From an uncultured Verrucomicrobiae bacterium (GTDB lineage: Bacteria; Verrucomicrobiota; Verrucomicrobiia; Chthoniobacterales; Xiphinematobacteraceae), in assembly GCA_963706715.1 (NCBI GenBank), contig CAVPNI010000001.1, positions 1 through 64,000 on the forward strand: 64,000 nucleotides of DNA. The letters run 5' to 3'. This document shows positions 2-13,476 of this stretch, piece after piece. Within the stretch, counting starts at the first letter, position 1. Every line of letters starts with the position of its first letter. The translations under genes and the position numbers were made by a program. The notes under the pieces are model-generated. The model saw nothing but the letters and a program-made list of their open reading frames with translations, did no database searches and was not told the origin of the DNA.

Positions 2-730
2 AACGATCCGGTCAACTTCGCAGACCCAGATGGACGACTAGGGAAAAAAGTGGTGAAGGTCATGGACTCCACACTGGGAAATCCAAGAATCCAAGGTGGA
101 CTTACAGTAGCCGGAGGAGTTGCGGAAATGCTCGGAGGGGCTGCACTGTGGGCAGTACCAGAACCAACGTTGCTCACTAAAGTAGGAGGTACCGCATTAA
201 TCGGGCATGGTGCCGATATGACCACAGCCGGATTAAAACAACTCTGGACAGCTCAGAGTACTCAGACCTTCGTTGCCCAAGGCGTATCCAAAGGACTCCA
301 AAGCGCTGGTGTTCCTCTTCACTACGCAAAAACTGTAGGTGCTGCGACGGAGATTGGGGTGGTCGCAGGAATACCTATTGGGATAATGGGGAAAGGTGCA
401 ACTATTGGGAAGCAATCGGTTAAGGCATTACATAATGATAATGCAACGGGTGTTTTGGGTAGGAGTGGAGAACCTCTTGTAAGTGCCGTAATTCAACCAT
501 ATCGTAATCAGGCAACAGCTATTGGTGGACGCCAGTTCACCGGCCATGCTCTCGATCAGATGCAGAACCGAGGGATCATGCCCTCAGTTGTCGAGAATAC
601 AATTAGTCATGGAACGGTTTTTCCTACGCGAGCAGGGGCAATCGGATTTTATGATCCAGTAAACAATGTACGAGTTATTACAAATAGCATGTCTGGAGGC
701 GTTGTAACCGTAATTCCAGGAGTACCATGA
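2..730 (+). CDS. Rhs/YD-type polymorphic toxin, C-terminal part (5' end outside window); pre-toxin region plus predicted RNase-like tip
   Basis: Frame is open from base 2 and reads NDPVNFADPDGRLG, the Rhs PxxxxDPxG boundary motif. A Gly/Ala-rich hydrophobic segment follows, then the tip GRQFTGHALDQMQNRGI..V, resembling DUF4258/BECR-fold nucleases. Confidence 0.85.
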   Translation, partial: NDPVNFADPDGRLGKKVVKVMDSTLGNPRIQGGLTVAGGVAEMLGGAALWAVPEPTLLTKVGGTALIGHGADMTTAGLKQLWTAQSTQTFVAQGVSKGLQSAGVPLHYAKTVGAATEIGVVAGIPIGIMGKGATIGKQSVKALHNDNATGVLGRSGEPLVSAVIQPYRNQATAIGGRQFTGHALDQMQNRGIMPSVVENTISHGTVFPTRAGAIGFYDPVNNVRVITNSMSGGVVTVIPGVP

Positions 731-1071
731 CAAGCCATTATCAAGACCAAGCACGCATTTATCATGAAGCCATCCGCAATATTTTGTTCAAGGAATGGGA
801 TCCAATTGGTGTGAGTGAAATCAATGAGGCGAAGGATGAGTACGATTCTTATGTTGGACCAATTTACAAGATGTTAATTGCTCGGAAATCTAAAAATGAG
901 ATTTTCGGTTATTTGTGGTGGCTGGAAACAGAACACATGGGATTGACCGGAGATCGCCAAGCAACAGAGTATTTTGCAGAGAAACTTGCAAAGTTACCTG
1001 ATGAAATTGATGCTGCTTTAGCGCAACGTGCCACCAACGACCGTAATCTCTACAATACTAAGAAAGTGTAG
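727..1071 (+). CDS. Putative cognate immunity protein (DUF1871-like)
   Basis: ATGA overlap with the toxin stop; 114 aa; WDPIG...DEYDSY motif. Confidence 0.7.
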   Translation: MTSHYQDQARIYHEAIRNILFKEWDPIGVSEINEAKDEYDSYVGPIYKMLIARKSKNEIFGYLWWLETEHMGLTGDRQATEYFAEKLAKLPDEIDAALAQRATNDRNLYNTKKV

Positions 1072-1087
1072 GGCCATTATTACTGAC

Positions 1088-2114
1088 TAGAGCATTTTAC
1101 ATTTAAGTAGATACAATTGAACCTGGTATGCTAAAAAGAACGAATGGCGAAGGCATATTCCAAAGATTTAAGAGAACGAGCATTGAGAGCAATAGATCGA
1201 GGAGAGAAACCTGGGACAATAGCCAAAAAACTTGAAGTGAGCCGCCAATGGGTACATCGGTTAAAAAAACGATCTGAAGAAACCGGAGAACGCGGGAGTT
1301 TTCCAATGGGCGGGCATCGCAAGAGCCGAATTGGGCATCTTGAAGCCGAGATTGGAAGCTGGGTAGAAGAGCAACCGGGAATCACATTACGGGAAATGAG
1401 TGAAAAATTGGAGAAAGAGCACGCAATCTTAATAGACATCCACAGTTTATGGCATCGATTAAAAAAATGGGGCATTACCTATAAAAAAAAAGCCTGCGGG
1501 CCACCGAACAAGATCGGCCAGATGTACAACAAGCCAGAAAGGAGTGGAAAGAAAACCAACCTACCATGGCAACAGATCGGCTTTTCTTTCTGGATGAAAG
1601 CGGAGTCAATACCAAAATGATTCGCCTTTATGGCCGCTCTCGAAAGGGAATGCGGTGCATGGATAAAGTCCCTCATGGAAATTGGAAAACAAGCACCTTC
1701 ATTGCAACTTTGTCTCATGATGGTCTGGTAGCTCCCTGGGTACTTGATGGTCCTATGAACAAAGAAGCCTTTGTAACCTATTTGAAAGAGGTCCTTGGGC
1801 CAATCCTTAAGCCGGGTGATGTTCTCATAATGGACAATCTTTCTTCTCACAAAAACATTGATGTCCAAAAAATTATAGAAGCCCGTGGTGCAAAACTCCT
1901 CTTTTTGCCCGCTTATTCACCAGATCTCAATCCAATTGAAAAATTTTTCTCCAAATTAAAAGCCCATCTTCGAAAAACAGCCGCCAGAACGCTCGATGCC
2001 GTTCTCTCTTCCATTTCCAATATTTTAAATTCTCTCACAAAAGACGAATCTTCCAATTATTTTCGTCACGCAGGATATGGAAATACTGTAACTACTTAAA
2101 TGTAAAATGCTCTA
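1088..2114 (+). mobile_element. IS630-family insertion sequence
   Basis: Perfect inverted repeat CTAGAGCATTTTACATTTAAGTAG at 1087-1110 and 2092-2115, including the TA/CTAG target; encloses HTH and DDE ORFs. Confidence 0.95.
1144..2099 (+). CDS. IS630 transposase in two ORFs joined by a probable -1 frameshift
   Basis: ORF 1144 (YSKDLRERAL, HTH) and ORF 1566 (FLDESG, MDNLSSH, YSPDLNPIE); A9 run at 1483-1491 (TYKKK). Confidence 0.9.
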
Positions 2115-2145
2115 GCGGATTAATTTATTGGACTTCCATCCAAAA

Positions 2146-12035: not shown

Positions 12036-12079
12036 AAACTCGCCTTCTTTATTTAGCTGCTTATCCTTAGCTGCTTGCC

Positions 12080-13099
12080 ATGTTCCCCGCAGCTAAAAGA
12101 ATACTCCTGCCTTCATGGCTTCTTGCTCTATGGATCATAGCTGCTGTCTGGACGTGTCTGCCTGATGCATCAAAAAACAGCGTCTGGAAAATTTTTTACA
12201 ACAGTCTCCAAACGAGCCTGCCAAAAGTCATCGTTCTCTCTGTAAATCAACAGGATAAAATCCAAATATCCTGGCAAATCGCATCAGAACAGACATACGG
12301 AATCAACTGGACAGATCCTACGGGAAGATTCGGGAAAGCGGCGGTGAATACCGTGACTAACATAGCAGCAAACCCGCGAGTTCAAGGAGGAATACAAGCG
12401 CTTGGTGGAGTTGGAGGGATGGCTGCTGGAGCTGCTCTAGTACTAACACCAGAACCAACTATGCTGACCAAGGTAGGTGGTGTGGCGGCAGTTGGTGTTA
12501 GTGCGGATTTTGTATCGGCAGGAGCGCGTCAGATGTGGTCGGGCCAGTCCGCTCAAACATTGACCGCACAGGCCGTATCCGGAGGACTACAAGGCATCGG
12601 TGTCAATGCCGAGAGCGCAAACAGGATATCCGGTATCACAGAAAACACCATCTCAGGCGTGCTACCGCTGGGAATTGCAGGTAAAGCTGCCGCTTTGGGT
12701 GCCGCTGCCGGAAAGCAGTCGGTTAAGCCGTTGAGTAATGCGGGAGCAATGACAGGAGTCCTACAAAATGCGAACTACGCCCAACGGACTTTTAGTCCAG
12801 CTTTCAGTTCGGGAGGGACATTTGCAGGGCAGACGGTTCAAGATGTAGCTAATGCTCTGCGAGCGGGCACGCTCAGAACAGCGGATGTTCCTATTCAATA
12901 TATCGTTAAAGATGGTAATGTATTGTTATTAAACACTCGGTCTGCCCAAGCACTTGAGCAGGCTGGCATTTCGAGGTCGGTGTGGAATGCCATTGACATG
13001 ACGGGAGACGCAGCCGCGCAAGCCAGGTTAGCTGCCCAACTGCGGCGGAGCGGCCTCGGTAGCGAAGGTATAACAACTGTTACACCAAGCGGACACTGA
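12080..13099 (+). CDS. Rhs-type toxin tip fused to a short non-Rhs leader; tip possibly ParB/Srx-like
   Basis: INWTDPTG at 12302-12325, then a region homologous to the 2..730 protein up to GKQSVK, then an unrelated tip (AQRTFS..DVPI..LLLNTRS). No YD repeats. Confidence 0.8.
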   Translation: MFPAAKRILLPSWLLALWIIAAVWTCLPDASKNSVWKIFYNSLQTSLPKVIVLSVNQQDKIQISWQIASEQTYGINWTDPTGRFGKAAVNTVTNIAANPRVQGGIQALGGVGGMAAGAALVLTPEPTMLTKVGGVAAVGVSADFVSAGARQMWSGQSAQTLTAQAVSGGLQGIGVNAESANRISGITENTISGVLPLGIAGKAAALGAAAGKQSVKPLSNAGAMTGVLQNANYAQRTFSPAFSSGGTFAGQTVQDVANALRAGTLRTADVPIQYIVKDGNVLLLNTRSAQALEQAGISRSVWNAIDMTGDAAAQARLAAQLRRSGLGSEGITTVTPSGH

Positions 13100-13101
13100 A
13101 T

Positions 13102-13476
13102 ATGAATTTTAAGAAACCATTACATACAATTCCAGTTCCTTCCACGGACTTCAGGACCGAAGCATATTTCGATGGGAAAGGGATTATGCCCACAATTCGC
13201 TTTGGCTACGAGAAAGAAGGAACAGTGTTTCAAGGTGGAATTAAGTTCAGTAAAGTAGCGGCTGTGCGCCTCCGAACTGAGCGGTGTTGCAAGGCGTGGC
13301 ACATTGAAGGCGCTTACGACACACTGGTTGAGGTTGAAGACTCGCCTTGGGTCGAAGAAATCCGAGTAGACACTATTGAACAATGGCGAGACAAGTGGGA
13401 AATGCACCACTACATGATCTACCTCGATAGCGTAGGGTGCTTCGAAATTATCGCCGAATCGTGGGCCACGCTATAG
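13102..13476 (+). CDS. Putative cognate immunity protein
   Basis: 124 aa ORF starting 2 nt after the toxin stop; HHYMIYLDSVGCFEIIAESW. Confidence 0.7.
   Translation: MNFKKPLHTIPVPSTDFRTEAYFDGKGIMPTIRFGYEKEGTVFQGGIKFSKVAAVRLRTERCCKAWHIEGAYDTLVEVEDSPWVEEIRVDTIEQWRDKWEMHHYMIYLDSVGCFEIIAESWATL

Follow-up and report, generated by a model that had tools for sequence, protein, structure and literature searches.

The first 12.3 kb of the DNA stretch analysed here probably represent one integrated copy of an integrative element that, by means of its own integrase, has exchanged the C-terminal tip of an Rhs toxin gene for a tip which it brought along. The window, by which we mean the whole stretch of 64,000 nt, comprises positions 1-64000 of contig C1 in the 3.04-Mb genome of an uncultured Verrucomicrobiae bacterium (coded G000), assembled in four contigs (C1-C4); relatives' genomes and loci are coded G### and L###, respectively. 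We put at about 65% the probability that bases ~8-12298, or 11.3 kb without an IS630-family insertion sequence, are such an element, that it probably replicates on its own, and that the copy in the window is also mobilisable.

The attachment site would be intragenic, at the point where core and tip of Rhs toxin genes meet within the coding sequence. The circular form would have a single open reading frame (ORF) in which a 73-codon leader is fused to its own tip (tip1), followed by the immunity-like gene of that tip (imm1). By recombining into a resident rhs gene, at the boundary between codons marked in ...N(D/N)|P(V)N..DPxG, the element would bring tip1 and imm1 in frame behind the host RHS shell; the resident pair, tip2 and imm2, would end up after the element's leader, as the last genes of the primase-integrase operon. 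The original prediction, made from the sequence alone, had proposed an element with an XRE-primase/helicase-XerC/D core and a MOBF relaxase between two Rhs tips. Family scans place all of these genes where they had been announced, but the description had left out an IS630 copy inside the stretch (1086-2115), which is a secondary insertion and no part of the element's design.

One break point in four copies, and two tips in the window

Comparison of the genome with itself identified four copies of a conserved element body, located in the window at 5905-12298 on the forward strand. Bases 5905-12332 match C3:965152-958725 at 99.84% identity, bases 6873-12298 match C3:762118-756693 at 99.96%, and bases 9007-12343 match C3:969877-966541 at 99.55%, this last copy being ended by the contig end. 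Compared base by base, the four copies are identical up to ...CAGAACAGACATAC (...GACATAC), that is, to base 12298, and then run into four different tips, beginning GINWTDPTG in the window and PTNWTDPTG, PVVYTDPTG and PVNYVDPTG in the other copies. All four fusions of leader and tip are in frame, in ORFs of 292-339 aa, and the right end of the element is fixed to one base in 4/4 genome copies. Since four copies of 99.5-99.96% identity diverge at a single base into different tips, the arrangement is beyond chance. The tips had been predicted to start at their DPxG motif; this motif is conserved, but the break at 12298 lies five codons before it, at a boundary where Rhs cores read ...N(D/N)|P(V)N. 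C3 also holds a tandem, in the order body A, leader|tipA, an immunity-like gene, 420 nt, body B, leader|tipB.

In the window, tip1 (2-730, forward strand) is an Rhs-type C-terminal tip with a frame open at its 5' end and the junction ND|PVNFADPDG between bases 7 and 8. In our reading it belongs to the element and has come to stand after a resident Rhs core, on the left attachment-site (attL) side. Tip2 (12299-13099, forward strand; GINWTDPTG...) is part of the 339-aa ORF at 12080-13099 and would be the former resident tip, displaced and fused to the leader on the right (attR) side. Both motifs were found as predicted, NFADPDG at 14-34 within the open frame 2-730 and NWTDPTG at 12305-12325 within ORF 12080-13099; counted from the junction, they form PVNFADPDG at 8-34 and GINWTDPTG at 12299-12325, in each case a DPxG motif after the conserved core end. 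The DPxG tip motif also follows RHS-repeat cores at C3:765022 and C4:8539, and at C3:765037 the tip is joined at exactly the PVN boundary to a full-length core, which has 2811 codons upstream. Over its first 68 nt, tip2 does not differ from the tip which at C4:21004 stands after a core-type end.

The two tips are homologous, as had been claimed (72/154 residues identical, 47%, E = 1e-28), and divergent afterwards, and the right one indeed lacks YD repeats. Each has its own small gene on the forward strand overlapping or abutting its stop: 727-1071 (114 aa), whose start overlaps the stop of tip1, and 13102-13476 (124 aa), positioned after tip2. These two genes are unrelated to each other and had no match in family scans; their position suggests an immunity function for both. 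In the Pfam scan, tip1 gave a weak match to DUF4258 (E = 2e-4, below the cutoff) and tip2 none. Elsewhere in the genome, the tips at C3:765037-764267 and C3:756692-755934 are 100% identical over their first 389 nt (130 residues) before their toxin domains differ, so that tips are modular, with a pre-toxin part and a toxin; tip C, a sister tip on C3, carries a TNT domain (7.5e-25). Pre-toxin parts of two classes, GRFGKAA... and GRIATP..., occur in the genome.

Because base 1 of the window is the start of a contig, the sequence upstream of tip1 lies beyond direct reading. The 7 nt left of the junction are of the Rhs-core type (...AACGAT|CCG), unlike the leader end (...ACATAC|), and the 7 nt CAACGAT with which the window opens are also the end of the C4-type core (compare C4:14376, ...GCTAACAACGAT|CCGGT). 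From this match and the core end on C4, tip1 most probably stands behind a C4-type core, across a gap of ~20 nt. At the end of C4, a stop-free frame of 2075 codons stops 8-9 codons short of the Rhs core-end codon (...FGHFGSL). A frame of 2782 codons at the end of C1 is likewise stop-free and stops at the core-end codon (...SLAKND); by family scan, its protein has 7 RHS_repeat matches (3e-50), DUF6531 and YD repeats, and its TIGR03696 match is broken off by the contig end at model position 66 of 76. Two joins were rejected, that of the C1 end to the C1 start, where one base differs within the overlap, and that of the C1 end to the C4 start, where there is no overlap. The sole join suggested is C4 end to C1 start, with the ~20-nt gap. 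Tip1 opens at a contig edge, and tip2 sits on the leader without a YD-repeat shell.

The break in C4 is explained by its last 3.4 kb (C4:548354-551801), which repeat C4:5049-8496 at 99.9% identity; a further 99.9% match links C2:687403-691624 with C4:542529-546751. Rhs core genes lie at three contig ends and an element copy at one, and the assembly is broken by Rhs loci and element copies. With so many insertion sequences and repeats, and with contigs ending in three Rhs cores and an element copy, one might suspect an assembly artefact, or a repeated element that merely lies near orphan Rhs tips without any functional link to them. This suspicion deserves next to no credence given the break at one base in four copies, the four in-frame fusions, and the recurrence of gene order and junction position in several phyla.

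Relatives with the complete core-junction-tip structure

We searched for the integrase in 401 genomes of the phylum and obtained a match at E <= 1e-40 in 171. Most of these were ordinary Xer-like genes of 33-40% identity; specific relatives, of 41-49% identity, were found in G393, G062, G110, G092, G302, G044 and G188. A profile of the C-terminal half of the primase, run against one genome per species, gave 302 relatives, and 75 loci were kept, from Verrucomicrobiota, Myxococcota and other delta-type lineages, Acidobacteriota, Riflebacteria, Elusimicrobiota and others. Those closest to the element come from Chthoniobacter and other Verrucomicrobia metagenome-assembled genomes (MAGs). Two genomes of the same genus as G000 (G090 and G114, ~0.9 Mb each) had no match to the element integrase.

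Relatives with 44-71% identical integrases carry, in this order, an Rhs core, the junction, the element tip and its immunity gene, the body, the leader, the junction again and the old tip. The predicted architecture was found complete and contiguous in G062, L056, L061, L079, L089 and L129. In G062, a 2384-aa RHS gene (8 YDxxG) runs in frame through an 89-nt junction repeat J (WLSRDPLGEQGGLNLTAFCGNDPVN) into a tip with a RES domain, followed by an immunity-like gene, XRE, primase, integrase, leader, J and the same tip again. The insertion is a tandem dimer with a unit of 7237 bp, ending with leader, J and a different tip (PT-TG). In its 7326-bp repeat, all 12 mismatches fall in the last (attR) J, the first of them 7 nt into the homology, and the longest identity block of J is 17 nt. 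L056, a Chthoniobacter MAG locus, is the closest relative found, with a 71% identical integrase and a homologous leader. It likewise forms a tandem dimer (7206-bp unit), behind an Rhs core fragment, with a J of 37 nt (PVNLMDPFGLGP); its only 4 mismatches all lie in the last (attR) J, from the 13th base on, and it breaks at the same PVN codon as the window.

Single insertions flanked by J repeats were found in L061 (51 nt), L079 (191 nt), L089 (202 nt) and L129 (93 nt, 100% identical), with YD-repeat ORFs of 691-1719 aa upstream. A flanking repeat or a tandem partner was present in 24/31 integrase instances with enough flank, overlapping loci being counted repeatedly. The metagenome contig L078 (7569 nt) holds XRE, primase, integrase, leader-tip and a small ORF, and its ends overlap by 141 nt, indicating a 7428-bp unit that is either circular or tandem. 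From the structures of G062, L056, L061, L079, L089 and L129 it follows directly that a circle of the order leader-J-tip-immunity-body would have recombined at J with a resident core-J-old tip, its own tip being grafted onto the shell and the old one ending up after the leader.

How consistently a tip follows the integrase was assessed on 155 ORFs of at least 80 aa starting within 1.5 kb after integrases, of which 150 were scanned (the five left out were all from L130). Integrases with at least 1 kb downstream, counted by assembly, numbered 49 instances in 25 assemblies. TIGR03696, the model of the Rhs core end, matched the post-integrase ORF above its curated cutoff in 10/25 assemblies, below it in 2/25 and not at all in 13/25, a figure that overstates absence since the model misses short junctions such as those of the window and L056. 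Among these 13 assemblies, that of L056 has the structure, with a junction too short for the model, and four others (L062; L063; L083/L086/L092; L096/L098/L112) carry leader-tip genes with the junction GC(A/S)V(A/P)P, one of them with a Tox-HNH-EHHH domain (1.2e-11). Where the data allowed a check, none of the outcomes named as fatal to the prediction was encountered. It would have failed, for instance, had homologous elements lacked adjacent Rhs tips; instead the same order and junction position were found across several phyla.

Leaders ending in GC(A/S)V(A/P)P, a second type of junction, were located at L112:13156-20200, L083:9107, L092:14345 and 21231, L062:10258, L063:4399 and L066:5615. 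In Synoicihabitans, four successive leader-fragment|GCVVAP|tip cassettes stand behind one integrase; there, displacement seems to have taken place within the element's own gene.

The catalyst of the exchange

The recombinase gene (10947-12035, forward strand) encodes an XerC/D-like tyrosine recombinase, with a Phage_integrase match (1.9e-38) over model positions 2-171 of 172. It scored 421 bits against a cutoff of 371 with the XerC-like model NF002331, its best match in the PDB was XerD (1a0p, 2.3e-46), and the catalytic motifs R, HxxR, H and Y are readable in its sequence. We infer that this enzyme makes the crossover.

The same element could have reached the same outcome with the host's homologous recombination making the crossover, in a Campbell-type exchange, of the kind put forward by Jackson et al. 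(2009), through the carried Rhs-core fragment or tip homology, and with the XerD-like recombinase only resolving multimers, perhaps at the motif M described below. We consider this unlikely. Homology is at hand in some loci, where it reaches 93 nt at 100% identity (L129) or 191-202 nt (L079, L089), and the frequent tandem multimers also suit this explanation. In G062 and L056, however, the exchange maps to the 5' edge of J, within the first 7 and the first 12 nt of homology, respectively, and identity blocks in the G062 J do not exceed 17 nt, which is short for RecA-dependent exchange. In this genome, homology is absent to the left of the junction and similarity to the right is only degenerate, and still four unlike tips are joined at the same base. 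These observations lead us to favour the integrase as catalyst. Its gene, moreover, lies directly upstream of leader and junction in nearly all loci (an integrase is present in 68/75), which likewise speaks against homologous recombination.

The original prediction had a 74-aa leader starting right after the integrase. A leader is present (12080-12298, forward strand), with a hydrophobic N-terminus; it has 73 codons and starts 44 nt past the integrase stop. It ends at the crossover point (...SEQTY|), and the leader of L056 is a homologue with its end at that same position. Motif M (12172-12200, forward strand), a DNA site inside the leader and conserved in relatives, consists of an A-tract, CAGCGTCTGG and a T-tract. 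It has exactly 4 copies in the genome, one per element (12172-12200 and, on the minus strand, C3:966712, C3:958885 and C3:756819), and was present in 13/42 related regions 3' of the integrase versus 0/42 on the reverse strand. Its reading frame varies, giving QKIASGVFE in G062 and AKNRVWGFL in L072, and M is thus conserved as DNA and not as protein. M, with its arm-spacer-arm look, may serve for multimer resolution or as an accessory site. As the crossover site it was ruled out, since the Rhs core of G062 enters the junction directly, without the 3' part of the leader between; a resemblance of M to the junction, compared by eye, was unconvincing.

Several observations weigh against an integrase-made swap by a mobilisable element. 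The junction showed no sequence recognisable as a recombinase core site, and the best-conserved site-like motif, M, lies ~100 nt upstream; that it looks like a simple recombinase site yet stands off the crossover agrees with the homologous alternative. So do two further findings. In the lineage with a 191-nt J (a Multivoradales genome with 15 junctions), junction variants are mosaic, as expected from homologous recombination, and the 389 identical nt shared by the attL-side and attR-side tips at C3:765037 and C3:756692 fit homologous exchange equally. The fusion of core and tip1 is not read contiguously, the left junction being a contig end, and the relaxase is absent from 3/4 element copies in this genome. 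Soil-metagenome run X1, the only sequencing run found, gave no joints and, for this organism, no circle, empty site or read across a junction; its contigs are short and of low coverage, most of the stretch was uncovered, and the run is therefore silent on circles and empty sites. Finally, Rhs tips had been expected to follow the integrase consistently in homologous primase-XerD loci; they do so in many, but in 8/25 assemblies no toxin-like junction gene was recognised after it (L064 has PelW there, for instance, and L088 a restriction enzyme).

A different tip behind each identical leader, the cassette series of Synoicihabitans and the place of the integrase on the XerC/D-IntI branch would all accord with an integron-like platform, in which the body with its integrase and leader is stationary and mobile tip-immunity cassettes are captured in frame behind the leader. 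We judge such a platform very improbable. Tandem units repeat the entire body together with the tips, junction repeats enclose the body where it sits in rhs genes, and the body occurs on a circular or tandem contig (L078). With the integron-integrase model TIGR02249 the recombinase reached 109 bits against a cutoff of 265, in two partial stretches, XerC and XerD models scoring far higher; no attC-like repeat was seen, no specific search for attC-like hairpins having been made.

Replication and transfer modules, known systems and genome context

The element encodes a 1024-aa protein (7870-10944, forward strand) in which family scans and a fold model recognise a DnaG-type primase, with CHC2 zinc finger and Toprim, fused to an MCM-like AAA+ helicase half. 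Zn_ribbon_DnaG and Toprim_2 matched, as did dnaG TIGR01391 over residues 3-365. The C-terminal half has an invariant GK[ST] Walker A motif but no match in Pfam, and a search of PDB sequences with its profile gave 0 matches. An AlphaFold2 model of this half reached a mean predicted local distance difference test score (pLDDT) of 78.8 with a 54-sequence alignment, replacing an earlier, unusable fold from a 5-sequence alignment (49.7). In a Foldseek search of the PDB all top matches of the model were MCM subunits (best E = 4.8e-9, with a template-modelling score of only ~0.35), so the modelled half is of MCM-like fold. The primase-MCM protein is presumably the replication module of the excised circle, which it would replicate.

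A MOBF (TrwC/TraI-type) relaxase-helicase is encoded at 2998-5844 on the reverse strand (TrwC 1.3e-75, AAA_30 2.8e-38; 212 bits with the MobF model NF041492, cutoff 100). It is followed on its 3' side by ORFs of 154 and 122 aa (2146-2610 and 2610-2978, reverse strand). The relaxase recurs at 48-52% identity in L062, L068, L069 and L070, where its position and orientation are the same, and L060 and L061 have weaker matches; in total it is present in 6/75 related loci, many of which are short contigs; homologues of the 122-aa ORF (orfX) stand beside it in 4/75 (L062, L068, L069, L070). The original prediction had listed the relaxase beside the core as a component of the element. The gene is there, but it lies outside the near-identical repeat and in 1/4 copies, and with its presence in 6/75 related loci it is an optional module. 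A paralogous module is found at C4:231.7-235.1 kb.

Upstream of the relaxase, at 5905-5947, a site resembling an origin of transfer (oriT) consists of a 22-nt box (TAAATAGTGATGACACCAATCCC) and the 7-bp inverted repeat CCTTAAC/GTTAAGG. Box and repeat are conserved in 5/5 relaxase-bearing loci aligned; of the predicted oriT this much was recovered and no more. Relaxase and site together may allow transfer. The left edge of the near-identical repeat unit (5905) falls exactly at the box, a hint that relaxase-free copies may have arisen by events at a nick site.

Other genes of the element include two XRE/RstR-like repressors on the reverse strand. The first (6380-6769; HTH_3 2.7e-11) has homologues adjoining the primase in relatives, and the second (7331-7792; HTH_3 5.4e-12) is divergent from the primase operon. 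Two small ORFs of 100 and 66 aa (6837-7341, forward strand) had no family match in family scans. The IS630-family insertion sequence (1086-2115, forward strand) comprises two overlapping transposase ORFs (DDE_3 5.6e-34).

Integrative and mobilisable elements combine a tyrosine integrase with a relaxase and an oriT. The present element resembles them in its tyrosine recombinase at one end, flanking direct repeats, tandem arrays, MOBF relaxase with a candidate oriT, and XRE-type regulators. With known integrative elements, the tRNA or housekeeping gene that is entered usually has its 3' end restored without change; with an attachment site inside a protein-coding gene, integration would here amount to a reciprocal in-frame swap of toxin domains. 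Shufflons and phage invertases exchange the C-terminal ends of PilV or tail fibres by site-specific recombination and are alike in altering a C-terminal specificity part from within a gene, but they invert resident segments in one replicon, whereas an incoming element brings in outside sequence here.

The part of Jackson et al. (2009; PMC2935791) drawn on here proposes that Rhs C-terminal displacement proceeds via a circular intermediate by homologous recombination, and notes that no integrase was known to accompany Rhs. Orphan arrays with core fragments, as in that account, exist in this genome too. In contrast to the model as set out there, which has no vehicle, we find a defined element with integrase, primase-helicase and, in some copies, a relaxase, and the displaced tip gains an element-encoded leader. 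The element thereby combines an integrative mobilisable element with Rhs tip displacement.

Passages of Ross et al. (2019; bioRxiv 10.1101/471110) describe rAID-1 of Bacteroidales as XerD-associated arrays of orphan immunity genes with integron-like intergenic repeats, defined by an XerD-like recombinase with at least 44% identity to BF9343_RS08045 and, after it, at least two co-directional immunity genes of low G+C (GC) content. Judged by these passages, integrons and rAID-1 are similar in having a recombinase of the XerD/IntI branch beside variable toxin/immunity cassettes, older ones accumulating downstream. They portray rAID-1 as a stationary platform of immunity arrays, whereas our recombinase travels with a replicon that usually has one tip-immunity pair, fused in frame to a leader or an Rhs core. 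In the window, the integrase is followed, unlike in rAID-1, by one leader-tip gene, one small gene and then an ISL3 copy. Excerpts of two other papers report XerC/D genes near polyimmunity loci (Zhang et al. 2012; PMC3482391) and integrase-like genes near Rhs loci of bee-gut bacteria, their role left open (Steele et al. 2017; PMC5727410). As described in these excerpts, such recombinases might aid capture, and no element, attachment site or junction is defined. A full-text literature search, whose scope excluded subscription journals and supplements, found no published primase-integrase element at an Rhs junction.

Few bacterial weapons vary as much as Rhs and other polymorphic toxins. It has been accepted since 2009 that an old tip gives way to a new one, but the arrival and insertion of the new tip lacked an explanation. 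The family offers a concrete and testable vehicle, a replicon of ~7-12 kb with its own recombinase and a defined junction. At slightly less than even odds, we would go further and regard these elements as a previously unrecognised, cross-phylum class of small primase-MCM/XerD-like episomes that live by delivering warheads, as the long-postulated circular intermediates of C-terminal displacement, with an attachment site co-evolving with the toxin processing junction and with addiction and spread achieved by fusion. The junction would be the PVN..DPxG boundary of Rhs in some lineages and GC(A/S)V(A/P)P in others. Integration would make two in-frame fusions, one arming the shell with the element tip and the other keeping the old tip's immunity gene expressed, and loss of the element would expose the cell to the new toxin of its siblings. 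In the window, too, the leader would keep the immunity gene of the displaced tip expressed, and it would explain why displaced tips often retain a start codon and a signal-like N-terminus. With 302 relatives and 75 loci across phyla, such elements could be a general route for horizontal exchange of toxin and immunity genes; in them, nature would also provide a case of integration used for the programmed, in-frame exchange of domains.

Further observations concern the genome and its surroundings. In the composition profile of the window, no GC boundary was informative. The genome is heavily colonised by insertion sequences: IS630 has at least 15 copies at >99% identity, and the ISL3 copy at window positions 13773-15249 has ~40 genome copies at ~86% and one at 99% (C4:20268-18792). 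Immunity-like genes are followed on their 3' side by a repeat of ~160-220 nt and 76-90% identity at C3:965153-965572, C4:1126-1346, C3:529814-529975 and C3:206488-206621. Orphan tips at C3:752203-755685, C4:10851-11813 and C4:20779-21729 carry another signal-peptide-like leader on a shortened core end (...TGLF..NGN|P...DPTG) and may be relics of another element type or internal deletions. In soil-metagenome run X1 (share 0.10), short contigs were identical to pieces of the element and to the C3 leader|tipA junction, which indicates that the run covers, at low depth, this organism or one very closely related to it. The same run contained a loose end equal to this C3 junction and an IS630 copy adjoining a ...TDPTGR tip start.

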